A stretch of 47,496 bases of DNA from Waddliaceae bacterium (GCA_963783885.1 CAWAPJ010000022.1:1-47496); one strand, 5' to 3'; numbered from the stretch's first letter, positions 2,829 to 47,496 are shown. Program-made: numbers and translations. Notes: generated by a model not told the origin, from the letters alone.

Positions 2829-3738
2829 CCACCTGAGAGATATGGGCGGCGGCTATCCAAGAGATTTTCGCGGTTATGGCGGCCAGCCTCCCGATCCCAA
2901 ATGGCCAGGGGGCGCTCGCATTGCCATTTCTTTTGTTGTTAACATAGAAGCGGGATCTGAGCTTTCGCTGGCAGATGGAGACGAGAGCAACGAAAGCATC
3001 TATGAAATCGTTGAGAAAGTCGAAGGCGTTCCCAATTTCTGCCTTGCTTCACATTTTGACTATGGTCCCCGTGTCGGATATTGGCGTGTCATGCGATCAC
3101 TTGCGCGGCACAATATCCCCTGTACCCTAAGCGCCGCAGGAAGAGCTATAGAGCGATGCCCTTGGCTAGCAAAAGATGCAGCAGCACGGGGACATGAGGT
3201 GGCCGCTCACGGCTACCGTTGGGAGTCTCACGCCGGTATGCAGGAGGATCAAGAGAGACAGGTTATCGCAAAAGTCGTACAGATAATCAAAGATGCTTCA
3301 GGGGAACGGCCTTTCGGTTGGCACACCAAAGGAGCTCCCTCTCCAAATACTAGGCGACTGCTGTTAGAAGAAGGCGGATTTCTCTATGACTCCGATGCCT
3401 ACGATGATGACCTTCCACGCATCGTCGAAGCCTACGGCAAAAAACATGTCGTTTTGCCCTATGCTTTCGATACCAACGATATGAGATTTATGGCCGGAGG
3501 CAACTTTGTCCTTAGCGATGACTTTGCAACTTATTGCATCGACGCTTTTAACACTTTATGGAAGGAAGGTGAAAAGCACCCAGCTATGATGTCGATTGGC
3601 CTCCATCCTAGATTGATCGGCAGGCCGGGGCGTATAGCGGGCCTTGAGCGATTTCTTGATTATGTCGGCGGAAGAGAAGGCATCTGGTTTGCAAGACGCG
3701 TCGACATAGCCCGGCATTGGCGTTCAGCCACTCTTTAG
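2815..3738 (+). CDS. Polysaccharide deacetylase (CE4) family protein, PuuE allantoinase-like
   Basis: Has the YPRDFRGYGGQPPDPKWPGGARIAISFVVNIE N-terminus, plus HEVAAHGYRW, FLYDSDAYDDDLP and MMSIGLHPRLIGRPGR motifs. Start moved from 2776 to the in-frame ATG at 2815; 2842 is also possible. Confidence 0.8.
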   Translation: MSKINHLRDMGGGYPRDFRGYGGQPPDPKWPGGARIAISFVVNIEAGSELSLADGDESNESIYEIVEKVEGVPNFCLASHFDYGPRVGYWRVMRSLARHNIPCTLSAAGRAIERCPWLAKDAAARGHEVAAHGYRWESHAGMQEDQERQVIAKVVQIIKDASGERPFGWHTKGAPSPNTRRLLLEEGGFLYDSDAYDDDLPRIVEAYGKKHVVLPYAFDTNDMRFMAGGNFVLSDDFATYCIDAFNTLWKEGEKHPAMMSIGLHPRLIGRPGRIAGLERFLDYVGGREGIWFARRVDIARHWRSATL

Positions 3739-3809
3739 ATTAACTTCCTTGACAACCGTATGAAAATCGTGTAAATATTTTTTTTAATTTATTTTAAAGG
3801 AAATCGATT

Positions 3810-4169
3810 ATGTCCGGTGTCACAGCTTTTTGTCAGCGTTGGGAAAAATCCATACATTTTGCAGGGACCTGTCCTGCCGGCTACTCCCTCCATCAAACCC
3901 AAAAAAATTGCGAGGAATTTATTCAAAAATTCTGGAACCAGCAACCTGAGAGAACTCCAGAAGTATATATTATACATTCTGGAGAACCTTTTAAAGTTAA
4001 AGTAGAAGGCCGGCTGCAAAAGAAACTCGACGCTAATCCCTCAGGTTTCCGCATTCGCGGACCGGAAGCAAAAAAATTCCGTCATTCAGGAGAGTTCATA
4101 ATCCTGCCGCCGCAAAAACCCAAAAGAAGCAAATCCTGGAAGAGACTGCCGACTTACAAAAGACATTAA
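3810..4169 (+). CDS. Hypothetical protein (119 aa, basic)
   Basis: ORF fills the gap, with AAGGA upstream of the ATG and TTGACA at 3749. No recognisable domain. Confidence 0.55.
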   Translation: MSGVTAFCQRWEKSIHFAGTCPAGYSLHQTQKNCEEFIQKFWNQQPERTPEVYIIHSGEPFKVKVEGRLQKKLDANPSGFRIRGPEAKKFRHSGEFIILPPQKPKRSKSWKRLPTYKRH

Positions 4170-4188
4170 TAGAGGAAATTGCAAAAAA

Positions 4189-4530
4189 GAGGGAAGGCGG
4201 TAAGCCGGATTCTGTCGAGGGCCATCATTTGTCTAGGGACCCCGTCGCCGAGATCCTCAAGCAGCTGTCTTCAGGACTCTGCGGAGAACAGTGAAGCGCC
4301 CTGTATTTGCCTTGCTTCGGATAGGGTTTGCCGCAGCCGGCAGGTCTCCCTGCCGGGGCCGGGTCTTAAACCCGGCGTTTCAGCCTGTCCGCCCAAAGGG
4401 CGGCGGTTTGCTTTCTGTTGCACTTTCCGTAGCCTTTCGGCCCCCAGCCTTTCGCTGGTATCCTCTCCTGTGAAGTCCAGACTTTCCTCCGCCGAATTAA
4501 AACGCGGCGGCGATGACCTGCCTTCCCGAG
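4189..4530 (-). ncRNA. rnpB: RNase P RNA, bacterial type A, apparently lacking helix P18 as in Chlamydiae
   Basis: The minus strand reads GGAGGAAAGTCTGGACT...GGAAAGTGCAACAGAAAGCAAACCGCC...AAACCC...AGACAAATGAT...ACAGAATCCGGCTTA. The 5' and 3' ends (GGGAAGGC / GCCTTCCC) pair as P1. Confidence 0.95.
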
Positions 4531-34440: not shown

Positions 34441-35527
34441 CGCAGACCTTATGGGGAGCCGGCTCATCCCCGCTCTTCGAGACATTGATCCTTCGGCTGC
34501 CATCTGGGGCGTGGGAGGGCCCAAAATGCGCAAGACATTTTTCGAATCTCTGATCCCCATGGAAGAATTCCAAATGATGGGTTTCAAAGACTGCTTGACA
34601 AGACTGCCGACATTGATCCATCAGCTGAGAACCCTTCGCAACCAGATTCTCGACCGCAAACCAGGCATAGTCGTCCTGATCGACTACCCCGGATTTAACC
34701 TCCGTCTTGCTAAAAGCTTGAGAAAGCATGGCTACAAGGGAAAAATTGTCCAATACGTATCGCCGACGGTTTGGGTCTGGGGAAAAAAACGAATTGAAGT
34801 CATCGCCAATTACTATGACCAACTCCTGTGCATCCTTCCCTTTGAACCACCCCTTTATGCCCATACAAATCTCGACGCCCGCTATGTCGGCCATCCCATA
34901 GTCGAGGCCATCGACTGGTATCGAAAAAATCCTTCCACCCCTTCAAGTAAAAAAATCCTGGCCCTTTTTCCCGGCAGCAGACAAGCCGAAATTAGAAACA
35001 ACTTTTCCCTCCAGCTAAACGCCGCCAAAGCCCTGCTCCCTAAATATCCCGATATGGAAGTTGCCGTATCGTGCTCCCAGCAGCAATACCGTCCGCTTAT
35101 CGAACAAATGCTTGCCGACGAAAACATGGAAAACCACACTTCGATTGTTGATGACAACTATGCGCTTATGGAAAGCTGCCATGCCGCGCTCGCCAAATCG
35201 GGAACCGTGACTCTGGAACTTGGCCTCTTCAACAAGCCCGCCGCTATCGTCTACCAGGTCGACAGGATCAACCGCTTTATTGCTAAACACATCGTCCGTC
35301 TCAACCTCTCCCATGTCGGCATAGTCAACATTTTGGCGAAAAAAACTGTACAACCCGAATTTGTCCTTGAGCCCTTTACACCGGAACAACTCATTGAATC
35401 GGTGGACAATCTCATTAGCAATGAAAACACTCGCCGCACATATCTGGAAGGCTGCAAAGAAGCAGCGGACATTCTCGGGCCCCAAAAAGCCAGCCTCGAA
35501 GCCGCTAGCGCGATTTTGAACGGTTAG
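34406..35527 (+). CDS. lpxB: Lipid-A-disaccharide synthase
   Basis: AAEASADLMG, IDYPGFNL, YVSPTVWVW, ILPFE, VGHP, LFPGSR and KSGTVTLE. Confidence 0.95.
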   Translation: MTSIFLLAAEASADLMGSRLIPALRDIDPSAAIWGVGGPKMRKTFFESLIPMEEFQMMGFKDCLTRLPTLIHQLRTLRNQILDRKPGIVVLIDYPGFNLRLAKSLRKHGYKGKIVQYVSPTVWVWGKKRIEVIANYYDQLLCILPFEPPLYAHTNLDARYVGHPIVEAIDWYRKNPSTPSSKKILALFPGSRQAEIRNNFSLQLNAAKALLPKYPDMEVAVSCSQQQYRPLIEQMLADENMENHTSIVDDNYALMESCHAALAKSGTVTLELGLFNKPAAIVYQVDRINRFIAKHIVRLNLSHVGIVNILAKKTVQPEFVLEPFTPEQLIESVDNLISNENTRRTYLEGCKEAADILGPQKASLEAASAILNG

Positions 35528-35680
35528 ACAAGTTGACTTATAGTTACTTGTAAAAATTTTATGGTTTGGGGATCCGAATCCAATAGTCTATAAAGTCAGC
35601 GTTACTGAGGTCTTTTACCGGATAAACCTAATTAGATTTGTGGGGAATAGGATATACGCTTGTGCCGTTGCACGACAAAG

Positions 35681-36415
35681 TTAAAATCCGACTCCGACAC
35701 TCATAGTTACAATGGGCAGCCATTGGTTTGTTGGCTTCAAGTCAAAGTTGTTTTCGTCTAATCTAATGTAATCATAGGCCGGATGGCTGATCTGAAACTG
35801 TAGAAACGATTTCACAGCTTTGTAAAGGTCGAACTGGTAGCCCGCCAGAAGCAAACCGCTAAAAGATCCACCCTCTGCTTTAGTTTTATTTATACCCATG
35901 TACACTCTATTTATATTCTCAAATACGACGTTGAGATAATCGATGCCTGCTCCCGCTCCGATGTAAAAAGTGCTTCGAGAATCCGGTCGGGTAAAATAAA
36001 GATATGTCAACTGTCCTGCTAGGTAGTACTTGACACCCTTATATTTGATCACTTTGCACTCATCAAACATCGTGGACATAGAAGATTCGTATCTGATCAC
36101 AGTTTCAAACTCACATTCCTCGGGCATGTGGCCTCTGATAGAGAAGTCAAATCCGTGGCGATGGTTGCGGTATCTGAAACCCAAACTCATTCTTGGAAAG
36201 ATCTTGTTGTCAGTCAGTTTTTTTTCAACCCAAGCTGAACTGGCATCGAACTTAGCATAAACCATAGATTCTCTGGAATGGTCTCGATTCAATCCCAGAC
36301 TTTCTTCGAGTTCAGCGTGCGATCCACTAAAACTTTGGTGAGAGTCGATAGCAGCGGCGGTTTGACATGTCATCAGTCCGAATATTGCCGCCAAAAGAAG
36401 TTTTGAGTGTTTCAT
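35681..36415 (-). CDS. Putative outer-membrane beta-barrel protein
   Basis: Signal peptide ending TAAA, alternating strands (FYIGAGAGIDY, LLAGYQF), and C-terminal MSVGVGF. Confidence 0.65.
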   Translation of the reverse strand: MKHSKLLLAAIFGLMTCQTAAAIDSHQSFSGSHAELEESLGLNRDHSRESMVYAKFDASSAWVEKKLTDNKIFPRMSLGFRYRNHRHGFDFSIRGHMPEECEFETVIRYESSMSTMFDECKVIKYKGVKYYLAGQLTYLYFTRPDSRSTFYIGAGAGIDYLNVVFENINRVYMGINKTKAEGGSFSGLLLAGYQFDLYKAVKSFLQFQISHPAYDYIRLDENNFDLKPTNQWLPIVTMSVGVGF

Positions 36416-36485
36416 AGATCAATCTCCATCTTTAGAAAATTCTCAAACGAAAGGATATAAGAGTAGCATTATACGTGCTTATGTT
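36330..36485 (-). repeat. 156-bp direct repeat, copy 1 (5' end, RBS and -10 region of the OMP gene)
   Basis: Matches 38130-38285 (offset 1800) with 5 mismatches by eye. Confidence 0.9.
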
Positions 36486-36514
36486 CATTTCTAAAGAAAT
36501 AATTGCAGTCAATC

Positions 36515-36548
36515 CCGTGAATTTATTATTTGAAAAATTTCAACGCGG
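36515..36548 (-). repeat. Dispersed intergenic repeat, copy 2
   Basis: Exact reverse complement of 22993-23026. Confidence 0.85.
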
Positions 36549-36574
36549 TGGCGTGGAGTCACAGGGATTATGAT

Positions 36575-36714
36575 AGGGCCGTGCAGTGGCTTGTGCATAA
36601 TTATTTGCTATGTTTAAGCGATGAACTTCCCGGAAGGCAATTGGGAAAGTTATGCGCAAAGCAAGGCGCGACTCCTTCGCGCGACCCTTTAACAATGCAA
36701 GGTACGGCCCCTTT
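36575..36714. repeat. Cassette-junction element, copy A
   Basis: Core TTGTGCATAA-TTATTTGCTATGTTTAAGCGATGAACTTCCCGGAAGGCAATTGGGAAAG-TTATGCGCAA (36591-36659). It is followed by stacked CAAWGCARG..CGRCYCCTT motifs. Confidence 0.88.
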
Positions 36715-36787
36715 ATCAAAATCCATTTTGAACGAAATGATGTCAGGCAAAGGGTCCTTTACCGCAGTTCAATTGCAAGTTCTTTAC

Positions 36788-37318
36788 TTAATTCTCCTCT
36801 TCGATAAGCTGCTTAGCCTCATCGAATGTCTCAGTAATAATTAATTTTCTTCCAAATTCTTTTTTAGGGTCATTGGTTTTATACATCACCGTTCCAATAC
36901 TTGAAACTACTAATGACAAATTTGGATGATATAATTTAGTGCCGTCTTCATCAAATATGATGATATCAATAACAATATTTTCAGGACCAAATGGTTTTTT
37001 TTCTAAAAATTCTTGGATATTTGGATCATTATTAACTGCTCTTGTGAATTCTTCTACACTATCAACAATAATTGAACGTGCTTCCTCTTGTGAAAGAGGT
37101 CGATATATTTCAAAACCGATACTAAGCATCGTAATTTTATCTAGCATGCTTCCACCAAAGCAGTTTGGTTGCATTGAGTATTTCTTTGCTAACTTGTTGG
37201 CCACTTCTCTTCTGATCTTACCAGCATAATAAGTTTTATCAGAGGAATATGCAGAGCATGAAGAAGTCATAAACAATAACATTGTTATGAGTAAAAAAAA
37301 TTTATTAATCATCACCAT
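36788..37318 (-). CDS. Putative lipoprotein immunity protein B3 (paralogue family B)
   Basis: Hydrophobic N-terminus ending MTSSC; strongly similar to 37369-37911 and 38388-38918; AT-rich. The start may be ATG 37312. Confidence 0.7.
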   Translation of the reverse strand: MVMINKFFLLITMLLFMTSSCSAYSSDKTYYAGKIRREVANKLAKKYSMQPNCFGGSMLDKITMLSIGFEIYRPLSQEEARSIIVDSVEEFTRAVNNDPNIQEFLEKKPFGPENIVIDIIIFDEDGTKLYHPNLSLVVSSIGTVMYKTNDPKKEFGRKLIITETFDEAKQLIEEEN

Positions 37319-37368
37319 TTTATATAATTAAAATATTTATTTTCCATCAGTTCCATTATTTTTGTTCT

Positions 37369-37911
37369 TCAGTGGGAATTGCTGTTATCTTGTTGAACAA
37401 TTTTTTTTGCATGGTCAAAGGTTTCTGTCTTTTCAACTTTAGTTTTAAACCTCTTCTCAGAATCTTCATACTTATAGCAGATTGTACCTATACTTGAAAC
37501 TACATATGATAAATTCGGATGATAAAAAATATTTCCATCATTATCGTAAATAATAATGTCAATTACTACATTTTCAGGACCAAAAGGGACATTAGCTAGA
37601 TATTGTTGAATGTGTTCATTTTCATTTACAGCATTAACTAATTCATTTACACTTTCAACAATAATCTGTCTTGCTTCGTCTTGTGTTAAAGGTCTATATA
37701 TCTCAAATCCTATATTTAACATTGTAATTTTATCGATCATGCTACCACCAAAACAATTTGGTTTCATGGAAAATTTCTTAGCTAATTTAGTGGCAACCTG
37801 CTTTCTTATTTTTCCTGCATAAAACACCTTGTCTGATGTATAAGATGAGCATGAGGAATTAAAAGTAAATAGTATTATTATTAGAAGAAATAACCTAATA
37901 TTCATTACCAT
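37369..37911 (-). CDS. Putative lipoprotein immunity protein B2
   Basis: Signal ends NSSC; family motifs CFGGSM, EAR.IIV.SV and PFGPENVVI. The start overlaps the stop of the toxin-tip fragment (TGGTAATG). Confidence 0.7.
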   Translation of the reverse strand: MVMNIRLFLLIIILFTFNSSCSSYTSDKVFYAGKIRKQVATKLAKKFSMKPNCFGGSMIDKITMLNIGFEIYRPLTQDEARQIIVESVNELVNAVNENEHIQQYLANVPFGPENVVIDIIIYDNDGNIFYHPNLSYVVSSIGTICYKYEDSEKRFKTKVEKTETFDHAKKIVQQDNSNSH

Positions 37912-38130
37912 AATCTCCTTCTAGAAAATATATCACCTATCGTAAATTTCAACCTTTGCTGATACGTCGGACTCATACAACTATGGTCGAGCAACGCGGC
38001 ATCAGGGTGTGCGCTTAGCCATTCGATTGTATTCCAAGATCTCACCATTCCCGGAATGTCAATTAAAGGTACTATATCCCTGAATGTGCTCACAAAATGA
38101 TAACATTCACTAAAGGTTTCTTCATACATA
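37905..38130 (-). pseudogene. Orphan C-terminal fragment of the lipase-like toxin with an alternative tip
   Basis: 37964-38130 matches 38971-39137 (167 bp, 1 mismatch by eye), then encodes a different last 19 aa: YQQRLKFTIGDIFSRRRLW. Confidence 0.85.
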
Positions 38131-38285
38131 AACTTTGGTGAGAGTCGATAGCAGCGGCGGTTTGATATGTCATCAGTCCGAATATTGCCGCCAAAAGAAG
38201 TTTTGAGTGTGACATAGATCAATCTCCATCTTTAGAATTTTCTCAAACGAAAGGATATAAGAGTAGCATTATACGTGCTTATGTT
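38130..38285 (-). repeat. 156-bp direct repeat, copy 2 (duplicated OMP 5' end fused out of frame to the toxin fragment)
   Basis: Matches 36330-36485. ATG 38215 gives MSHSKLLLAAIFGL..., which terminates within the toxin fragment. Confidence 0.9.
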
Positions 38286-38289
38286 AAAT

Positions 38290-38366
38290 CTCATGCAACT
38301 AAAGTCGAGCCAGTCATCATCATGGTGTGCGTTTATCCGTTCAATCGTATGCTATGATCTCATCAT
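38290..38366 (-). pseudogene. Degenerate remnant of the lipase-like toxin C-terminus
   Basis: 59/77 nt identical to 38979-39055 without gaps: MMRS*HTIERINAHHDDDWLDFSCM versus MVRSWNTIEWLSAHPDAALLDHSCM. Confidence 0.75.
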
Positions 38367-38387
38367 CTTTAGATCATAAAGTCGTTA

Positions 38388-38918
38388 TCACTTTCCCTCA
38401 ATAATAAGCTTCTTAGCTTGATCGAATGTTTCGGTTGTAACATCTTTATAACCAAAATTGCTTTCTGGATCATTTGTTCTGTAGAAGATTCTACCAATGC
38501 TAGATGATGCGTTTGATAGAGAAGGGTGATACAATCTCTTTCCGTTTTCATCATAAATTGTGATAATGATAACCACATTTTGAGGTCCAAATGGAATATT
38601 TGCTAAATAAGGTTGTATTTCTTCATTGCTATTCACATATTCTATAACCTTTTCAACACTATTAACGAGAATATTTCTTGCTTCTCCCTTAGAAATTGAT
38701 CTATACAAAATAAAACTGATACTAATCATTTCTATTTCTTCTAGCATTTTAGATCCAAAGCAACAAGATTCTAATCCATATTCTTTTCTGAGTTCTTTTG
38801 AAACTTTTTTTTGAATCTTTCCAACATAATACGATTTATTGTGATTTTGACCATTACAGCTAGTCAACAAAAAAGCAAAAACTAGAAAATTGAAAAAGAT
38901 ATAATATTTCATTACCAA
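38388..38918 (-). CDS. Putative lipoprotein immunity protein B1, cognate to the Rhs lipase-like toxin
   Basis: Lipobox-like LLTSC; start coupled to the toxin stop (TAATG at 38912); paralogous to B2 and B3. Confidence 0.72.
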   Translation of the reverse strand: MVMKYYIFFNFLVFAFLLTSCNGQNHNKSYYVGKIQKKVSKELRKEYGLESCCFGSKMLEEIEMISISFILYRSISKGEARNILVNSVEKVIEYVNSNEEIQPYLANIPFGPQNVVIIITIYDENGKRLYHPSLSNASSSIGRIFYRTNDPESNFGYKDVTTETFDQAKKLIIEGK

Positions 38919-40592
38919 AGTCTTCTCCTATCAATGATATCAGATATTCTATCCTCTATTGGATCAAAAAACGTCGGACTCATACAACTATGGTCGAGCA
39001 ACGCGGCATCAGGGTGTGCGCTTAGCCATTCGATTGTATTCCAAGATCTCACCATTCCCGGAATGTCAATTAAAGGTACTATATCCCTGAATGTGCTTAC
39101 AAAATGATAACATTCACTAAAGGTTTCTTCATACATATATGCTGCGGGACAAAGGCCGATGCCTATCACATTTTTTCTATATTTTTCATCCAGCATCAAT
39201 CCAAAATTTCTTAATTTTATTCCTCCGTGGCTATGGCCTAAGATCAGAATCGCGGCGTCATCTCCTATTTCGTTGATCATATCTTTCACCATGCCCAACA
39301 ACAATATTTCCGGTACTGTTGCTGTATAACCGGTTAAATTTTCCCAACATTCTCCTAAATCTTCGAATGTACCATGAGTAGCATTATAAACCATATGGAC
39401 ATTATATCCACCTGACATTTCGGATATCCGCTCTCCAAATTGCCTTTGTTCGTGAGGTTTTGTGTTGATGCCATTCATTGTTATAATCCGCATATTGCCC
39501 GGTTCCGGCAGATTGGCCCCATAGTAATTTAAATCATGAACAAATGACCTTTGGTCGGGCGGGAAGAAATTCTCAAATACCAGATCGACTTCCACTTTTG
39601 GAAGGGTATTTGTGCTATCAGAATGGTAAAACGACCCTCCTAATGGAGCAGCCGTATTATTTCTCATAAAACCACCGAATCCCATCGTAAAATTCCACAG
39701 AAGAGATTTTCCACTTAAACCGAATTTATCAATAAAAATCAGCGGATTATTATGAACATACGCATAGAGGTTGAACCCGTCGGAGTAGCCTTTGGGGTCG
39801 CAGGTGGTCCAGCGGCCGAGGGAGGGGTCGTAGTAGCGCCTGCCGAAATAAATCCAGTCTGTTTCGGGGTCGTATCTCTTGCTGGAAAACTGATAGGGAG
39901 GGGAGAATCCCTGAGATTTTTCGATTTGACCAAAAGCGCTGTATCGGGCTGAGAAAACGATGACGCCTGTTTTGGCGTTGACTAAAGCCGCTGTGCTTCC
40001 CGATTGGTCGTGGGTGGGAGCATAGACAACTCCTTCGATTTCCAAAGCGATGGCGGCGCCGATTTCTGCGCCGAGGCCGACTCCAAGAGCTCGGAAGGAG
40101 GTAAGCGTATCGTCTTCAACACTGCCAACCTCACAGTCGCCTTGGTAAATAAATTGAGTTGTTGCAGAGAGGATCCAGCCGTCAGGAGTGTTGCGGTATT
40201 TGTGCTTGGCGATCCGCCTGTTTTGCGAGTCATATACATAGCGGTACTTTTCTTCGTTTTTGATGACTGTGGTGAGGCGGTCAAGAGCGTCGTATGAATA
40301 AGAAGCTTCGGTATCAGCAATGAGATTGCCTGCCAGGTCGTAGGTGTAGGTTTTGCCGTTTGCGGTGAGAACCTGGTTTAAGTCATTGATGGCGATCTCC
40401 TCGCCGTCATAGGCAACGCGGTTATTGATGGAATCGTGGGTATAGGAATGGGACGCGAGTCCCTCTTCAGAGGCAAGCTGGTTGAGCTTATCATAGGAGT
40501 AATCACAGCGCTCATGGCCCCAGTAGTCGGCGGTGTCTCGGGAAACGAGGTTCCCTGTTTCGTCATAGGCAATGTTGTTTTGAGACCAGTAT
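38912..40592 (-). pseudogene. Orphan Rhs cassette 2: truncated Rhs core + alpha/beta-hydrolase (lipase-like, DUF687-like) toxin domain
   Basis: The Rhs frame at 40591 (YWSQNN..) is in frame with the ORF starting at TTG 40045, with no earlier start codon. The core reads YFGRRYYDPSLGRWTTCDPKGYSDGFNLYAYVHNNPL, followed by NGINT, YNATHG, GHSHGG, RDIVP and DHS. Confidence 0.82.
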
Positions 40593-40694
40593 ATTGTGCA
40601 TAATTATTTGCTATGTTTAAGCAATGTACTTCCCGGAAGGTAATTGGGGAAGTTATGCGCAAAGCACGGCGCGACTCCTTCGCGCGGCCCTTTT
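40593..40694. repeat. Cassette-junction element, copy B
   Basis: Near-identical to the copy A core and inner right arm. It abuts the Rhs truncation point (40592) and ends 2 bp from the immunity gene stop. Confidence 0.9.
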
Positions 40695-40696
40695 AT

Positions 40697-40930
40697 TCAC
40701 ATCCAGTCTACTTGCCAATCACATTCTTGAAAAATTTTCTTAACTGTAGAAAAATCTTCAGCCCAACTATCGTAGCCTTCTCCTGGGCGATCAATATCGG
40801 CATCTTTAGATAATAAAATCAAAAAACCACCTGATTCTTCAAAGTCGTCCTTAACGAAGATGTACCAATTTTTATGCTTTCCTTGTAAAATTTTACCTAA
40901 TTTATTTACTTTAACATCATCACTATTCAT
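40697..40930 (-). CDS. Putative immunity protein A2
   Basis: 77-aa acidic ORF whose start overlaps the toxin stop; homologous to 43320-43568 (YD.WAEDFSTV..IF.E..WQ.DW). Confidence 0.75.
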   Translation of the reverse strand: MNSDDVKVNKLGKILQGKHKNWYIFVKDDFEESGGFLILLSKDADIDRPGEGYDSWAEDFSTVKKIFQECDWQVDWM

Positions 40931-42461
40931 AAAATCTCACATGATTGTTCGCTGTTCCATATTTACTTCCAATTTCAAACCGTTCATAATGTATATGTGA
41001 ATAGAAAGGTCTATGATTTCCCATTAGTGAACCATTATCAATCCGAAACTGCCGAAGTCCATCCATACTTCTGAATACGCCGCGTGCAGGATTTCCAAGT
41101 TCTTTATATCCAGAACCAAGATATTTCATACCAGCTTCTAACGCCTCTTCTGCCGACAAGACATATTTACTTGTAAAGTTTCCATTACGCATAAATGTTT
41201 CCCGAATCACCGCATCAGCTTTATTAAGTTGTACCATTCCTTCATTAATTCTGAATGGCACCCGGTATGATAAGCCTTCAGCAGCAATTGCTTTAATCTT
41301 ATGTGATTTAGGTATAATATTCCCATTAATCATATTTTTGGTCGATTGAAAGATTCTATGAAAAAATCTTTCTCCAACTTCAGCAGCTTTTTTCGCATAA
41401 TGAACTTTCATGGCAGATTTTCCCAACCATTTAACGGCCCGACCGCCAAGCCCAAGGACTTTAGCTGGGGATAGCTCCAATGCGGTACCCCCGATGAGAA
41501 GTCCAATATTCGTCCAGCTTCTTTGAGATATGGGAATCACTCTATTTGGGTCGTTCGGATCCCCCCAAAACTCACTGTGAATGCTGGCGCCTAATTCATA
41601 AGTGCAGCCAAAAAAGAAATCGCGAGCACCGGTAAAGGTATAAACTGCCGCATCTCTTATTCCCTGATATTGGGCTTGAGGATCATACATGGCAATTTCC
41701 TCAGGAGTTGAATCCCAGTACCCGTCAAAGAGACCATACTCATCAAAGTGAGTAAGCGGATTATTATGAACATACGCATAGAGGTTGAACCCGTCGGAGT
41801 AGCCTTTGGGGTCGCAGGTGGTCCAGCGACCGAGGGAGGGGTCGTAGTAGCGCCTGCCGAAATAAATCCAGTCTGTTTCGGGGTCGTATCTCTTGCTGGA
41901 AAACTGATAGGGAGGGGAGAATCCCTGAGATTTTTCGATTTGACCAAAAGCGCTGTATCGGGCTGAGAAAACGATGACGCCTGTTTTGGCGTTGACTAAA
42001 GCCGCTGTGCTTCCCGATTGGTCGTGGGTGGGAGCATAGACAACTCCTTCGATTTCCAAAGCGATGGCGGCGCCGATTTCTGCGCCGAGGCCGACTCCAA
42101 GAGCTCGGAAGGAGGTAAGCGTATCGTCTTCAACACTGCCAACCTCACAGTCGCCTTGGTAAATAAATTGAGTTGTTGCAGAAAGTGTCCATCCCTCGGG
42201 GGTATTGCGGTATTTATGTTTGGCGATCCGCCTATTTTGCGAGTCGTATACATAGCGGTACTTTTCTTCGTTTTTGATGACTGTGGTGAGGCGGTCAAGG
42301 GCGTCGTATGAATAAGAAGCTTCGGTATCAGCAATGAGATTGCCTGCCAGGTCGTAGGTGTAGGTTTTGCCGTTTGCGGTGAGAACCTGGTTTAAGTCAT
42401 TGATGGCGATCTCCTCGCCGTCATAGGCAACGCGGTTATTGATGGAATCGTGGGTATAGGA
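40923..42461 (-). pseudogene. Orphan Rhs cassette 1: truncated Rhs core + toxin allele A2
   Basis: Rhs homology begins at SYTHDSINNR (42461). The ORF-track start (TTG 42551) lies inside repeat copy C. It has the Rhs core signature and a toxin ending GVFRSMDGLRQFRID...HIHYE...NNHVRFYE. Confidence 0.82.
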
Positions 42462-42467
42462 GGTGAT

Positions 42468-42570
42468 GGAGCCTGTTGTGCATTGTGCATACTTATTTGC
42501 TATGTTTAAGCGATGAACTTCTCGGAAGGCAATAGGGCCAGTTATGCACAATGCAGGTTACGGCCCCTTT
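42468..42570. repeat. Cassette-junction element, copy C
   Basis: GGAGCC..TGCATTGTGCATA ... TATGCACAATGCA..GGCCCC terminal inverted repeats surround the same core. It begins 6 bp from the Rhs truncation point. Confidence 0.9.
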
Positions 42571-42628
42571 AACGATGTCACAAAAACCGCTTTACGGCCA
42601 TTTTACAAATACCCTTGAATGATTATAC

Positions 42629-43276
42629 TTAAAAAAAGTCTTCTTTAGATGAAGTCGTTTGAATTCTATCTAAGTATTTTATTAGTGTATTTCTTTTTTG
42701 TTTTTTAAGGATGAAAAGAACATGATAACTTAAAATTACCAATTTATCAATCGTAGATGAAGTTATTTTTATTGTTTTACCAGGTTTAACATTTGCCTGA
42801 AATCCAACACTAGCTTTTGATTTAAAATCAAAAGAAAGTCCTGCTTCTTCCTTTTGAACAGGTATATCAATGGAAAATAAACCATTTGTTTTTGGCTTTT
42901 CGGACCATCGAGGAATTAAAGCACCTTTTGTGTGAGACAATGCGTTGCGTAGGTCGAACAAAAATTTACCCAAGTTATGTAATTTTTGTGGGACATCTTT
43001 TTCTCCAATGTAGTTAATGTGTTCGTATAAAGCTTGTCGCATAATTTCGATGTGATTGACTAAAACAGAGAGAACAATAGCTTCAAACATTTGATCCCAT
43101 TCAGTTTTGTTTCTTACAATCGGTGCAGGGTATTTTTTTTTAAAAATTTGCCAAACAAAATTGTCCCTTATATAGATAAGTTCTCTATTAGCAAAAATAA
43201 AGTGCGCTAAGGACGACTGAAGTTTGTGACAAGCTTTTTTTAGGGCCATTTTACTTCTCAGATATTTCCATGACAA
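42629..43276 (-). CDS. Hypothetical protein with a HEPN-like RxxxxH motif
   Basis: AT-rich 215-aa ORF, helical in character, containing FLFDLRNALSHTKG. The start is uncertain (ATG 43249 possible). Confidence 0.55.
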   Translation of the reverse strand: MSWKYLRSKMALKKACHKLQSSLAHFIFANRELIYIRDNFVWQIFKKKYPAPIVRNKTEWDQMFEAIVLSVLVNHIEIMRQALYEHINYIGEKDVPQKLHNLGKFLFDLRNALSHTKGALIPRWSEKPKTNGLFSIDIPVQKEEAGLSFDFKSKASVGFQANVKPGKTIKITSSTIDKLVILSYHVLFILKKQKRNTLIKYLDRIQTTSSKEDFF

Positions 43277-43319
43277 AGAAGCCGTTATAAAGAGCTTCTC
43301 GGTCCATTTTCCTGATATG

Positions 43320-43568
43320 TTAGAGCTCGACCCCTTTAGTCCAGTCTATTTGCCAATTTGATTCTTTAAATATTTGCTCTACAGTAGAAAAATCTTCAGC
43401 CCAATAGTCATAGACTTCCGAAGCTTTATTTATATCTTTGTGATTAAATATGAGAATCAAATAACTATCTGATGATCCAAAATCTTCTTGTACACGAAGA
43501 AACCAATCTTTTGATTCACCTTTACGAATAGTACCTGTAATATTTAACTTTATTATATCTTCATTCAT
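43320..43568 (-). CDS. Putative immunity protein A1, cognate to the main Rhs toxin
   Basis: 82-aa acidic ORF overlapping the Rhs stop; paralogue of 40697-40930. Confidence 0.78.
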   Translation of the reverse strand: MNEDIIKLNITGTIRKGESKDWFLRVQEDFGSSDSYLILIFNHKDINKASEVYDYWAEDFSTVEQIFKESNWQIDWTKGVEL

Positions 43569-46500
43569 AAAAAAATATATGGTTGTTTACTAATGGTTTC
43601 TTAGCTCCCAAATCAAAAGTTTCTAAGTGAAAATGAGGTTTCCAAGGACAATGAGTGCCATTTAAAGACCCATAGTCAATCCTAAACTGCCTCAAATTAT
43701 CAACACTTCGAAATACTCCACGTGTAGGGTTGCCAATTTGTCTATAACTAGAACCAAGATATTTCATACCAGCTTCTAACGCCTCTTCTGCCGACAAGAC
43801 ATATTTACTTGTAAAGTTTCCATTACGCATAAATGTTTCCCGAATCACCGCATCAGCTTTATTAAGTTGTACCATTCCTTCATTAATTCTGAATGGCACC
43901 CGGTATGATAAGCCTTCAGCAGCAATTGCTTTAATCTTATGTGATTTAGGTATAATATTCCCATTAATCATATTTTTGGTCGATTGAAAGATTCTATGAA
44001 AAAATCTTTCTCCAACTTCAGCAGCTTTTTTCGCATAATGAACTTTCATGGCAGATTTTCCCAACCATTTAACGGCCCGACCGCCAAGCCCAAGGACTTT
44101 AGCTGGGGATAGCTCCAATGCGGTACCCCCGATGAGAAGTCCAATATTCGTCCAGCTTCTTTGAGATATGGGAATCACTCTATTTGGGTCGTTCGGATCC
44201 CCCCAAAACTCACTGTGAATGCTGGCGCCTAATTCATAAGTGCAGCCAAAAAAGAAATCGCGAGCACCGGTAAAGGTATAAACTGCCGCATCTCTTATTC
44301 CCTGATATTGGGCTTGAGGATCATACATGGCAATTTCCTCAGGAGTTGAATCCCAGTACCCGTCAAAGAGACCATACTCATCAAAGTGAGTAAGCGGATT
44401 ATTATGAACATACGCATAGAGGTTGAACCCGTCGGAGTAGCCTTTGGGATCACAGGTGGTCCAGCGGCCGAGGGAGGGGTCGTAGTAGCGCCTGCCAAAA
44501 TAAATCCACCCTGTTTCGGGGTCGTATCTCTTGCTGGAAAACTGATAGGGAGGGGAGAATCCCTGAGATTTTTCTACTTGTCCAAATGCGCTGTATCTGG
44601 CGGCGTGAACGAGATCGCCTGTTTGGGCGTCAACTAGAGCAATGACACTTCCCGATTGATCGTGAGTGGGGGCATAAACAACTCCTTCGATCTCCAGAGC
44701 GAAAGCCGCTCCGATTTCTGCGCCGAGGCCGACCCCAAGGGCGCGGAAAGAAGTAAACGTATCGCCTTCAAGACTGCCTACTTCGCAACTGCCCTGATAA
44801 AGGAATTTTGTTGTCGATTCAAGACTCCAACCTGAAGTTGTCTTGCAATATTTCTGCTTGGCGATCCGCCTGTTTTGCGAATCGTAGATGTAGCGGTACT
44901 TTTCTTCGTTTTTGATGACTGTGGTGAGGCGGTCAAGGGCGTCGTATGAATAAGAAGCTTCGGTATCAGCAATGAGATTGCCTGCCAGGTCGTAGGTGTA
45001 GGTTTTGCCGTTTGCGGTGAGAACCTGGTTTAAGTCATTGATGGCGATCTCCTCGCCGTCATAGGCAACGCGATTATTGATGGAATCGTGGGTATAGGAA
45101 TGGGACGCGAGTCCCTCTTCAGAGGCAAGCTGGTTGAGCTTATCATAGGAGTAATCACAGCGCTCATGGCCCCAGTAGTCGGCGGTGTCTCGGGAAACGA
45201 GGTTCCCTGTTTCGTCATAGGCAATGTTGTTTTGAGACCAGTATTTGGACGTGCGGGAGATTTCACGGCCGAGCAGATCGTATTCGATGGCGACTTGGCC
45301 CGCAAGGCCAATCTGATCGATGCTTCTCAGCTTCCCTCTCATATCGTATCGGTAGTTTGCGGAATATTCCTCGTGGGGATTGTTGAAGATAACCTGCTCG
45401 AGATGCTCTCCGGCATATTGGTACGCGACGGCCCTTTGGCGGGGGAAGTTGGCTTTAACTGTTCTACCAAGGTTATCCTTCTCGTAGGAAACTTCAAGGC
45501 CGTTGCCGAGTTTTTCAAAAATCATTTCCGAATGGTCGTTATAGCGCTTTTCTGTAACAAAGTGATGGATGCGGTCAGCAATGGCTATGAGGTTTTTGAG
45601 GCAGTCGTAGGTATATTCATAGCAGATGGCACTTTCTTCGGGAGCATTGAGCGATTCGAGCTTTTCAACAAGACCAAGTTGGTTATAAGTATATCTGAGC
45701 TGTATGCCGTTTGGTTTGACCACTTTTTCTTTCTCGCCAAAAGGGGTGTATTCATAACGGGTGATTTTTTGATCGATGGAGCCTGAAGCTTCAATGAGAC
45801 AGGTGAGCTGATTGTCGCTGTTGTATTCCATAAGATTGGTGATCGTGCGGTCGTCTTTTCCGGGAGTGATGACCGTTTGAGTGGTTTTGACCACATTGCC
45901 GATATTGTCAAAGACTTGGTCGACTTTATAGAGCAGCTCGCCATAGGGATCTTTTTTTTCTATGCTGACGACTCTGCCGAGAGCGTCATGAGTTTCGATG
46001 GATTGAATGCCCTTGGGATCGATAGTGGTTTTCTGAAGGACCCTCTGGCCGAATTCATTGAAAAAGTCATAGTCGTAATGGATGTGTGTGATATTCCCAA
46101 GAGGATCGATTATTTTTGTGGGGTTTTTACGGGCGTCATATTCCGTTTGGGTAACGGCAATTCCGTCGTCGGTATGGACCATGACTGAGATTTTATTGCC
46201 CATCTCGTCATAAAGTGTTTGAACATGGTTGGTGATATTGCCGGATGAATCTTCGGTATATTCTTCGATGATCTGGTCGCAGAAATCGTAGATTTTCACT
46301 TGGGCGATGTAATTGTCGTTGTCGATCCATTGCCGGGTGATGGATTCACGGCCGAGGGTATCGTACTCATAGGTTATTAGGCGCTCGCCTTGTTTCACGG
46401 CTATTTTTCTGCCGGCGCCGTCATAGGTAAACTCCGTGATATTTCCTGCGGGATCGATTGTCGACATCAGGAGGTTGCCTTCATAAACATTGACAGTCTT

Positions 46501-47496
46501 TTGAAGAAGCTCGCCGGTTGGTGATTCCAGCCGGGTTTCCACTTCTTGGCCGAGGGCGTTGTATTCATGAAAGGTGATCAGGCCTGTTCTGGAAACTTCT
46601 TTAACGAGGTTTCCGTCGAGATTGTAGAGAAACGACTTTCTGTCCGTCGGGATAAGAGATGTGATAGGGTTTTTTGTGGCAGGTAAACTGCGATTTTGTC
46701 GTTCTACCCTCGCTGTCTGTCATGGAGATGACATTGTCTAAAGGATCGTATTCTTTGGAAGCGGTTGTGCTGATGAATTGCCCACTAGGCTGAAGCGTTT
46801 GAGGAAAAATTATTTTTGTCTCTCTTCCAAAGCGGTCATATTCATGTTTGACTTCATGGCCGAATCCGTTTACCTCGCTAATTTTGTGGCTTAGATAATT
46901 ATAAGAAAACGAATTGGAGAAACAGACTTTGTTTTCGTCATATTCATCGACGCGGATGAGGCGGTTTGAGTAATCATAGGTATATTCTTTTTTGCAATCC
47001 GGCCGCGGACCGATTTCCCTGATCATGTTTCCGTTCAAATCATAGTTTCTTCTGACGGAATATCCGAGGGGGTTGGTCTCAAAATTCACTTGTCCATATT
47101 TATTGTATTCTTTGTATAGGGTGTAGCAATATTGATCTTGGCTGTCGTAAATCTCCTTGCTGGCAAGCCACCCTTCTTTTGTGTAGGTGTTGACACATCT
47201 TCTGAGCTGGATTTCCTGTTCTGATTCCGGATCCCAATAACTTTCGACAACTTCTTCAGGGAGGCCGAAGCAGGGAGTTGAATATTTGGGAGTCACCCTT
47301 GTGATGAGTCTTTGCGTGGTGCCGAGCATATTTTTGCGATCTGGAGAGGTGCCGTTGTCGACAATTCTTTGGATCATGATTCCATAATCGTCATAGTCGT
47401 AAAATTCTCTTGCGGCAATTGTTCCGTCGGCAAGGAGGAGCTTTTTTTTAAGAAGGTTGGTCCCGGGCTTATAGATGATTTTGTGGTTTTTCGGCC
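43561..47496 (-). CDS. Large Rhs/YD-repeat polymorphic toxin (5' end outside the window), with a frameshift near 46640
   Basis: YD repeats run throughout ORFs 46601-47377 (frame open to the window edge) and 43561-46542. The frames join at SYPDG/KSFLYNLDGNLVKE. The Rhs core is followed by toxin allele A1. Confidence 0.9.

Follow-up and report, generated by a model that had tools for sequence, protein, structure and literature searches.

Hairpin repeats, group II intron relics and insertion sequences at the junctions of orphan Rhs modules in a Waddliaceae bacterium

Arrays formed by Rhs C-terminal displacement consist of a leading rhs gene followed by silent ‘tips', in each of which an immunity gene follows a variable toxin end and a core fragment that differs in length from tip to tip (Jackson et al. 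2009, PMC2935791). As set out in the main text of that paper, in which the terms ‘insertion sequence', ‘transposase' and ‘H-rpt' do not appear, the model invokes only homologous recombination through the core, via a circle, and leaves open the origin of the first circle or junction; the source of the orphan tip or circular intermediate is likewise open in Poole 2011 (PMC3150448; ‘mechanisms ... are unknown'). In integrons the attC site is an imperfect palindrome at the 3′ end of the cassette into which group IIC-attC introns home, and these introns have been proposed as cassette builders (PMC3001079). The rAID-1 arrays of Bacteroidales, as outlined in the text of the preprint, contain orphan immunity genes with repetitive, integron-reminiscent intergenic sequences and are defined by a conserved XerD-family recombinase gene at the 5′ end (Ross et al., bioRxiv 10.1101/471110). 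Rhs toxins have already been reported in chlamydiae, Waddlia included (PMC3482391; PMC3150448). Here we analyse a 47,496-nucleotide stretch of DNA from a Waddliaceae bacterium (GCA_963783885.1, CAWAPJ010000022.1:1-47496; the window), in which orphan Rhs toxin-immunity modules are punctuated by a palindromic repeat, element E. The original prediction held that E is a recognition or cleavage site, or a scar, of a trans-acting enzyme that captures or moves the modules. That proposal is partly supported: the association of E with module borders is confirmed and extended, and no dedicated enzyme was found. We read the junctions as join points of illegitimate recombination or deletion at a family of hairpins resembling repetitive extragenic palindromic (REP) sequences and miniature inverted-repeat transposable elements (MITEs), subsequently propagated by homologous recombination through the Rhs core, a reading to which we assign a probability of roughly 0.55.

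The window is the entire contig C22 of a metagenome bin (G000; 2.16 Mb, 46 contigs, 89% complete). Two genomes of the same genus recur below, the sister genome G001 (5 contigs, also a metagenome bin) and G002. The three copies of E in the window are real and far beyond chance. Copies A (36571..36717), B (40593..40694) and C (42462..42571) all lie on the plus strand, antisense to the Rhs genes, and score 113.5, 98.4 and 107.5 bits, respectively, with a covariance model of the element. A repeat search recovered a 107-nt family at 36584-36690, 40587-40693 (92%) and 42476-42582 (73%, ungapped), while blastn gave identities of 94% over 100 nt (A/B), 92% over 65 nt (A/C) and 88% over 66 nt (B/C). 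The claim of three copies in one orientation with a common 69-bp core (88-94% identity) was thus confirmed, and the inner inverted repeats, outer motif and stacked degenerate units were found where they had been placed. The inner repeats are TTGTGCATAA / TTATGCGCAA at 36591-36600 / 36650-36659 in copy A and 40594-40603 / 40653-40662 in copy B, and TTGTGCATAC / TTATGCACAA at 42483-42492 / 42542-42551 in copy C. The outer motif occupies 36693-36714 (A) and 42549-42570 (C), and degenerate stacked units of it are present at 36660-36691 (A), 40663-40694 (B) and ∼42571-42604 (after C).

Alignment of the window copies with three copies from G001 reveals a ∼26-nt terminal inverted repeat, a 49-nt interior and the complementary repeat, the terminal motif being GGGGCCGTGCNGTG followed by CATTGTGCATAAC. 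Copy C and the G001 copies are complete, with terminal repeats of ∼26 nt and a total length of 100-118 nt. Copy A comprises, in order, the left terminal repeat GATAGGGCCGTGCAGTGGC, an inner repeat, the 49-nt interior, the second inner repeat, an X unit (36660-36691) and a Y unit (36692-36715); the Y unit corresponds to the outer motif and the X unit to an inserted GC-rich stem-loop, a 6-bp stem followed by a T-rich tail that is terminator-like on the coding strand. Copy B retains the core and X unit but has neither the Y unit nor the left outer terminal repeat that would face Rhs. Copy C has both terminal repeats, no X unit and an extra degenerate motif unit extending to ∼42604. The element folds as a long hairpin (DNA folding z-scores of −2.1 to −7.0 over seven foldings; −3.3 for copy A), and a scan of positions 35000-47496 against Rfam (E-value ≤1) matched no family. 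A frame that is open in copies A, B and C is interrupted by a stop codon in a copy on G001 contig C4, and the sister copies conserve no reading frame. E is a non-coding palindromic repeat of ∼100-140 bp. At 42462-42551 copy C adds an in-frame TTG and 27 codons before the truncated Rhs gene next to it (orphan 1), giving a 542-aa open reading frame (ORF), and the corresponding frame in copy B is out of register with its Rhs; the added frame is probably meaningless, although it could permit translation of orphan 1.

Each copy lies just past the last gene of a module, as had been claimed: copy A is 70 nt past the stop of the 176-aa gene at 36788, copy B 2 nt past that of the 77-aa gene at 40697 and copy C 58 nt past that of orf215 at 42629. 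On their other sides copies B and C abut truncated Rhs genes, homology to other Rhs copies stopping at 40592 and 42461, respectively. The 0-bp abutment proposed for copy B stands; the 6 bp proposed for copy C does not, as alignment of the family places the start of this copy at 42462-42464 and hence leaves a gap of 0-2 bp. The two truncation points do differ, by 131 bp in register (repeat spacing 2014). The position of the join inside E also differs at each junction examined. Copy B is cut within its terminal repeat and joined to Rhs at YWSQNN, while copy C has the full repeat plus TATCAC and is joined at SYTHD; the copy on G001 contig C3 has the repeat, an extra motif and TTTC before joining at ANYRYD, a third truncation point. 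At the intron-type junctions described below the join lies 33 nt into an E-like end, and on contig C19 15 nt in. The cassette boundary is therefore not at a fixed core-site position, since the E ends at the Rhs joins differ in B, C and the G001 C3 copy. Thus, of the idea that E is an enzyme recognition site, the association with cassette borders holds, while a fixed cleavage or crossover site and a linked recombinase are not supported. Differences between copies A, B and C were too few to place a crossover within the element.

The sequences on both sides of copies A, B and C are unrelated, and homology to other copies and contigs breaks at the edges of E; that of the copy A region with contig C30, for example, stops exactly at 36718. 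This bears out the view that E is not the hitchhiker of a single segmental duplication. Contig C30 did not provide an empty site for E, as homology ends at the edge of the element and the far side differs, and at the 156-bp duplicate considered as an empty site for copy A (see below) the sequences are unrelated past the repeat. Searches for a promoter directed outwards from E into the truncated Rhs genes gave nothing convincing (29 sites region-wide, compared with 20.2 ± 4.2 in shuffled sequences).

A covariance model of E was run over 31 related genomes. Strong matches were confined to G000 (n=3) and G001 (n=3); three further genomes of the same family gave weak matches and the 25 genomes from other families none. 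Every one of the six full-length copies is located at an Rhs locus, and their orientation with respect to Rhs is the same throughout. In G001 one copy (contig C3) is located between an immunity-like gene and a truncated Rhs, and two (contig C4) bracket an intact 1590-aa Rhs gene together with the 240-aa gene behind it. One of the latter is ∼100 nt upstream of the intact Rhs start codon, and an ISAs1-family transposase gene lies 96 nt from one copy on this contig. There is no synteny between the E loci of the sister genome and the tail of the window apart from E itself. The core pattern had no match in a metagenome contig collection and one match among 185,579 species genomes, which was the sister bin. 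A looser pattern, TTGTGCATAA-N42-58-TTATGYRCAA, was discarded as uninformative, as its matches (at least 118, in many phyla) compare with a chance estimate of about a thousand.

Parts of the element are more widely scattered. A profile search of G000 found part-copies at C44:674-716, again behind an Rhs gene, and at C29:123070-123104, a short version between convergent genes, in addition to weak end-like matches on contigs C8, C19 and C5. A short hairpin version also occurs in another genus (G005), away from Rhs. Near the C44 part-copy, a different repeat of 55 bp (GAATT.TCCCACACTATTTCACGGGAAGTGACGATTGCGACAAGGGAATAGCTT; G000:C44:1-53 and 741-795, L004/L020; L016:9340-9395) is found repeatedly where genes end in the array of immunity genes that follows the Rhs gene. 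The terminal 22-mer (≤3 mismatches) was found four times in G000, five times in G001, 13 times in G002 and not at all in G004 and G005, with no match to the reversed control pattern in any genome scanned. The 13 G002 occurrences are identical solo copies of CCGGGCCCTGCATTCTGCATAA (for example at loci L078, L081, L084, L087 and L068). In six occurrences at five loci ∼32 nt are conserved (GGGCCGGGCCCTGCATTCTGCATAACTT) with unrelated DNA on both sides, one copy following a tRNA gene, and none of the five sites examined is within 1.5 kb of Rhs. With respect to a preference for toxin-cassette borders, therefore, the full element (6/6 at Rhs) behaves as had been supposed and the scattered half-motif does not. 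In G000 a loose form of the motif is nevertheless enriched fourfold in Rhs loci, which hold 15 of 160 matches in 2.26% of the genome. The repeat family has so far been seen only in Waddliaceae-type chlamydiae, and the best explanation of E is that it belongs to a set of REP/MITE-like intergenic hairpins in these organisms that have a common terminal motif.

Another possibility is that E is a mere terminator, or an RNA-stabilising 3′ hairpin of the toxin-immunity operon, copied with the modules and irrelevant to how the junctions arose. The X unit, which in copy B begins 2 nt past the immunity stop codon, is consistent with such a role, as are the short hairpin versions in ordinary intergenic DNA (C29 and G005). 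Copy C, however, has no X unit and one copy of E is upstream of an Rhs start; the unrelated flanks show that the element was not simply copied along with a module, and the abutment of 0-4 nt to truncated Rhs is left unexplained. We therefore view this as very unlikely to be the whole role of E.

A second hairpin, F (G000:C30:5040-5137, L019), measures 90-94 nt and is bounded by perfect terminal repeats of 30 nt that resemble those of E in sequence pattern. It is present once in the genome, and abuts a 5′-truncated Rhs at approximately residue 452 of the full-length protein. Its Rfam call as a plant microRNA precursor is spurious (44 bits against a gathering score of 249). Hairpins E and F could be non-autonomous MITEs, in which case a copy would land in an Rhs core and recombine with the copy behind the upstream immunity gene, deleting the intervening DNA. 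The product would be immunity gene, E and truncated Rhs. This fits the anatomy of E (terminal inverted repeats of 26-30 nt, small size, no ORF), its direct orientation in all copies, which is needed for deletion between repeats, and the exact abutment at varied Rhs positions; in addition, the 13 identical G002 22-mers suggest recent activity of something with that end. However, no target-site duplication was evident at the four full copies inspected (C, the downstream copy on G001 C4, the G001 C3 copy and F), and no transposase gene with E-type ends was found in G000 or the 5-contig G001. Furthermore, copy B has no terminal repeat on its Rhs side, the six G002 occurrences inspected, of 13, are flanked by unrelated sequence and hence are not the ends of one insertion sequence (IS), and the intron-type junctions are not located at the intron end. 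On balance a MITE origin of the junctions appears unlikely.

The original prediction had proposed a resemblance of the outer motif to repeats near Y1-type REP-associated tyrosine transposases (RAYTs), which was not borne out. The only PF01797 match in G000, on contig C10, is a 138-aa tnpA accompanied by a divergent 405-aa tnpB, an IS200/IS605-type arrangement, and the E motif is absent within this 3.4-kb tnpA/tnpB locus. In G001 six full-length PF01797 matches belong to a multi-copy 1.58-kb IS (five in whole units, one in a part) and three more are fragments. The RAYT link was accordingly rejected, the Y1 genes present being IS200/IS605 transposases without the motif. Nor does E, with three full copies in G000 and three in G001, show the high genome-wide copy number of REP sequences.

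The outer motif points to a different mobile element. In the further Rhs loci of G000 (contigs C8 with C19, C30, C43 and C44) junctions similar to those of the window recur. On C8, C19 and G001 C3 a conserved ∼560-nt unit occupies the spacer that separates an immunity gene from the truncated Rhs after it, and this unit matches the group II intron D1-D4 model RF01999 with 86-94 bits. All seven RF01999 matches in G000 and G001 are within Rhs-array spacers. The intron is cut at ∼500 nt on C8, C19 and G001 C3, whereas only ∼45 nt are left on C43, fused to a bare toxin fragment. The local copies end where the gene for the intron protein would start; after the cut come 52 nt starting like the end of E (GGGGGCCGGTCCCTG-CATTGTGAATCAC...), and then Rhs at WSQSN, only a few bases from the truncation point beside copy B. 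All seven matches lack domain V and an intron-encoded protein, neither RF00029 (domain V) nor RVT_1 had a match in G000, and at the G001 arrays RF00029 was likewise without a match. With neither domain V nor a reverse transcriptase in G000, the local copies are dead relics and not whole introns. Full-length relatives with an intron-encoded protein or domain V occur in other families of the order, and a DNA search found the intron in 10 of 150 genomes.

The 5′ end of the intron is GTGTG, and in every local copy it is preceded by (A)GGGGCCGTGCCGTG, often in tandem. In an alignment of seven intron lineages, the final six bases of the exon, GCCGTG, base-pair with the intron loop CACGGC, as intron-binding site 1 with exon-binding site 1 (EBS1-IBS1). 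This pairing fits six of the seven lineages although their exon sequences differ. The loop covaries with the exon in five lineages besides the local one (two exact, one exact for eight bases, at exon positions −9 to −2, one at 5/6 positions and one with two wobbles), and in the remaining lineage no clear pairing is apparent. Further upstream, GGGCC is matched by another loop of the intron, GGCCC (EBS2-IBS2). As the 5′ exon is the outer motif in G000, G001 and G119, the motif is, judged from these pairings, the site (IBS2-IBS1) at which a group II intron lineage is predicted to home. These 14 bases recur, one position being variable, in the terminal repeat of E, making E a natural target of the intron, and an intron from another family is positioned behind a similar motif. 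Tandem copies of the homing-site motif stand directly upstream of intron relics at G000:C8:5389-5432 (L017) and L029:11690-11760, as four copies of the 11-nt GATAGGGCCGT and, after a degenerate unit, two copies of the 17-nt AAAAAGGGCCGTGCTGTG.

With its attC-like size and its place at the 3′ end of each module, the imperfect palindrome of E, targeted by a group II intron as attC sites are by IIC-attC introns in integrons (PMC3001079), might instead be a folded or double-stranded recombination site, similar to attC or dif, through which host XerC/XerD or an unseen recombinase moves Rhs C-terminal toxin-immunity modules. E has one 11-mer that is arm-like and another that is XerD-like, 7 nt apart, the left inner repeat followed by 7 nt and CTATGTT(T/A)AAG resembling a Xer site. 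The inner repeats GCATAAC / GTTATGC are one position off the integron core-site consensus, and the other strand of the right inner repeat matches nine of ten positions of the XerC arm of Escherichia coli dif. Homology between part-copies ends just after the arm plus 6 nt on C29 and in the six G002 occurrences inspected, of 13 (five after CTTTT), and after the XerD-like arm on C44. Xer-type genes are present: PF00589 identifies two intact ones in G000 (contigs C13 and C17), with orthologues in G001, and two pieces of one broken gene on C19, ∼18 kb from the array end. The search for a motif-flanked tyrosine recombinase, which had been suggested as a check, came to no more than these three, none near an array, and the PF00589 scan found no IntI-type integrase with attI, or any recombinase, at the Rhs arrays. 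Also on C19, ORFs at 2312-3409 and 3753-4520 (L018), 1-3 kb from the end of the Rhs array, encode what we take from their N-termini to be IS110-like and IS5-like transposases.

The chromosomal dif site of G000 is predicted at C5:48880-48907 (also L015:7584-7611), on the basis of a palindrome at the GC-skew switch that is conserved in G001 with two mismatches, and it fits the Firmicutes-like dif type expected for chlamydiae (PMC3025954). Another dif-like site, whose arm on the XerC side is identical, is present at G000:C28:47010-47037. E and the predicted dif are alike at only 5/11 and 6/11 arm positions, and the spacer of the latter is 6 nt rather than 7. The E-bracketed Rhs unit of G001 lies 3 kb from the predicted dif, but this neighbourhood is not conserved in G000. 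The dif-like lead is therefore weak. Against a site-specific system in general stand the Rhs junctions, which are outside the putative site and at varying places, the arrangement of E copies as direct repeats where pdif modules alternate, and the lack of an integrase or other recombinase at any array; the resemblance was, moreover, noticed post hoc. We consider recombination at such a site improbable, and hold the fuller version, in which E hairpins are true recombination sites that capture Rhs modules in series and the intron helps to create module ends, to be equally doubtful. Were it true, the arrays would represent an integron-like cassette system for polymorphic toxins without an integrase of its own.

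Similar junctions have been made with unrelated elements, namely the intron cut at two depths, hairpin F and an IS66 element, and once in the window without any element. The IS66 end cuts the Rhs of contig C8 at approximately residue 340-360 (G000:C8:9950-10300, end of L017), and the element has a 99% identical relative in the sister genome; the DNA flanking it on the far side corresponds in position to the G001 C4 Rhs locus. At the join without E, a toxin fragment is fused at 38130 to codon ∼29 of a copy of a 244-aa outer-membrane-like gene. The 156-bp repeats at 36330-36485 and 38130-38285 bracket a 1.8-kb insert that comprises the toxin fragment, two immunity-like genes and copy A, both repeat ends being sharp. 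With one side homologous and one illegitimate, the 38130 join has the pattern of homology-facilitated illegitimate recombination. Junctions also vary between populations. In two soil-metagenome runs a contig exchanges everything left of 40667 for the end of hairpin F, after the 77-aa gene and X unit, and in a salt-marsh run the 180-aa gene is followed by a motif stack in place of the next gene (contigs only). As these contigs differ after the same immunity genes, module order and junction element vary from population to population. Two further candidate joints were too weak to use, one linking 40360, CAAG, 42540-42569 and 43676 (one run, side 30) and the other 42252 to 44891 (another run; in repeat register, 182 ambiguous letters).

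The variable joins within E, the unrelated elements at similar junctions and the lack of a candidate enzyme lead us to read the junctions as scars. The spacer between an immunity gene and the next toxin reads as the only dispensable DNA in the array, and is palindromic and rich in remains of mobile elements. The abutments of E and truncated Rhs would represent join points of illegitimate recombination or deletion, which would be favoured at such a hairpin-forming, mobile-element-ridden spacer. These joins would have cost a tandem or incoming Rhs copy its 5′ part, while selection preserved the toxin-immunity pair downstream and the immunity gene upstream. Once finished, the junctions would have been shuffled and propagated by homologous recombination from one Rhs core to another (C-terminal displacement). 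The X unit probably serves in addition to terminate or stabilise the module transcript. A dedicated enzyme would not be required.

Several observations weigh against this reading. Three to four independent junctions place truncated Rhs 0-4 nt from the end of E or an E-like remnant, whereas deletions ending at random within a spacer would be expected to leave differing amounts of DNA behind. Full-length E is seen only at Rhs loci, a restriction that a passive repeat need not show, and in G001 (C4) it brackets an intact Rhs-immunity unit in the manner of a module boundary. The junction at copy B has an alternative form in the metagenome runs. The six full copies are not six independent events, and as G000 and G001 are metagenome bins, multi-copy partners of the element may be unassembled. 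Hairpin-stimulated breakage, finally, is a step that we infer. The tight abutment and the Rhs restriction of full E, which illegitimate recombination at hairpins does not fully explain, keep the MITE and recombination-site alternatives alive.

The genes around the three E copies conform to an orphan array, with 5′-truncated cores of one clade (88-97% identical to one another within the window), behind each of which come a toxin end of its own and a small immunity gene. Every gene from 47494 down to 35681 is on the minus strand. The leading Rhs gene with its C-terminal toxin (43561..47494; Pfam RHS_repeat, E-value 2.9e-22) runs off the contig end and is itself incomplete. It is 96% identical to C30:5156-8257, a twin that begins directly after hairpin F and starts only at approximately residue 452 of the 1590-aa full-length Rhs; the window end falls 22 nt short of the start point of the C30 Rhs. 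The frame of the leading gene is broken near 46542-46601, where the C30 copy is uninterrupted, indicating a frameshift, pseudogene or assembly error. The leading toxin is followed by a putative immunity gene of 82 aa (43320..43568), which overlaps the toxin stop, has no Pfam match and is a paralogue of the 77-aa gene. Between it and copy C is orf215 (42629..43276), with no Pfam match and no function assigned. Orphan 1 (40923..42461) is a 5′-truncated Rhs core, from ...SYTHDSINN, with a toxin paralogous to the leading one; its core is 88.5% identical to the leading Rhs and 96.7% to orphan 2, and its putative immunity gene is the 77-aa paralogue (40697..40930).

Orphan 2 (38912..40592), whose frame is open right from the junction, consists of a 5′-truncated core, from YWSQNN, and a C-terminal domain. 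Pfam recognises only the YD-shell part of this protein, and a GHSHGG motif suggests that the C-terminal domain is a putative lipase- or esterase-like toxin. The putative immunity gene next to it encodes a lipoprotein-like protein of 176 aa (38388..38918) without a Pfam match, with paralogues at 37369-37911 and 36788-37318. Following the orphan 2 module are the 156-bp direct repeat (38130..38285; 97% identical to 36330-36485), which covers the first ∼29 codons of the 244-aa outer-membrane-like gene (35681-36415) together with its promoter, a 3′ fragment of a lipase-type toxin (37905..38130; 99% identical to 38971-39137), the two paralogous lipoprotein-like genes, copy A and the 244-aa gene itself. 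A search for related loci with the C-terminal part of Rhs returned no relatives.

Taken one by one, orphan Rhs arrays, hairpins of the REP/MITE type, repeat-homing introns and palindrome-associated rearrangements are known. Their combination at chlamydial Rhs orphan junctions appears undescribed in the open-access papers and preprints searched, among whose main texts no paper linking Rhs orphans with group II introns or MITEs was found. The chlamydial arrays preserve the join points, and all of those examined, bar one plain illegitimate join, hold a hairpin repeat, an IS or a truncated group II intron. They thus point to illegitimate recombination associated with palindromes and mobile elements as a source of orphans. 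In addition, they define a group II intron lineage whose predicted homing site is a repeat element.

REP sequences and their composites, the bacterial interspersed mosaic elements (BIMEs) and RAYT-mobilised REP doublets (REPINs), are short extragenic palindromes, sometimes stacked, that serve as targets of mobile elements, as possible 3′ stabilisers of RNA and as join points of rearrangements; in Salmonella they are reportedly found at the join points of tandem duplications. Element E is similarly palindromic, extragenic, partly stacked, an apparent intron target and located at join points, but differs in having three full copies per genome, a 100-140-bp composite structure with a unique 49-nt interior, and no RAYT found. 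The H-rpt and ISAs1 elements that reside in the Rhs elements of E. coli provide a precedent for IS-type repeats at Rhs loci, although H-rpt is ∼1.3 kb and coding, while E is ∼0.1 kb, non-coding and exactly at the junction. With integron attC sites E has in common an imperfect palindrome at the 3′ end of a module that is targeted by a group II intron lineage, whereas IntI, attI, Pc and a fixed crossover are all lacking. The local intron, as it uses EBS2 besides EBS1, is not class C-like, and it differs further from IIC-attC introns in its sense orientation and in surviving only as 3′-cut relics. In contrast to rAID-1, no recombinase gene is present at any array and toxin fragments are retained beside the immunity genes. 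In organisation the arrays resemble the displacement arrays of Jackson et al., and the core fragments here are of one clade (88-97% identity); in contrast to that model, which uses core recombination only, the junctions carry a hairpin repeat, an intron relic or an IS.

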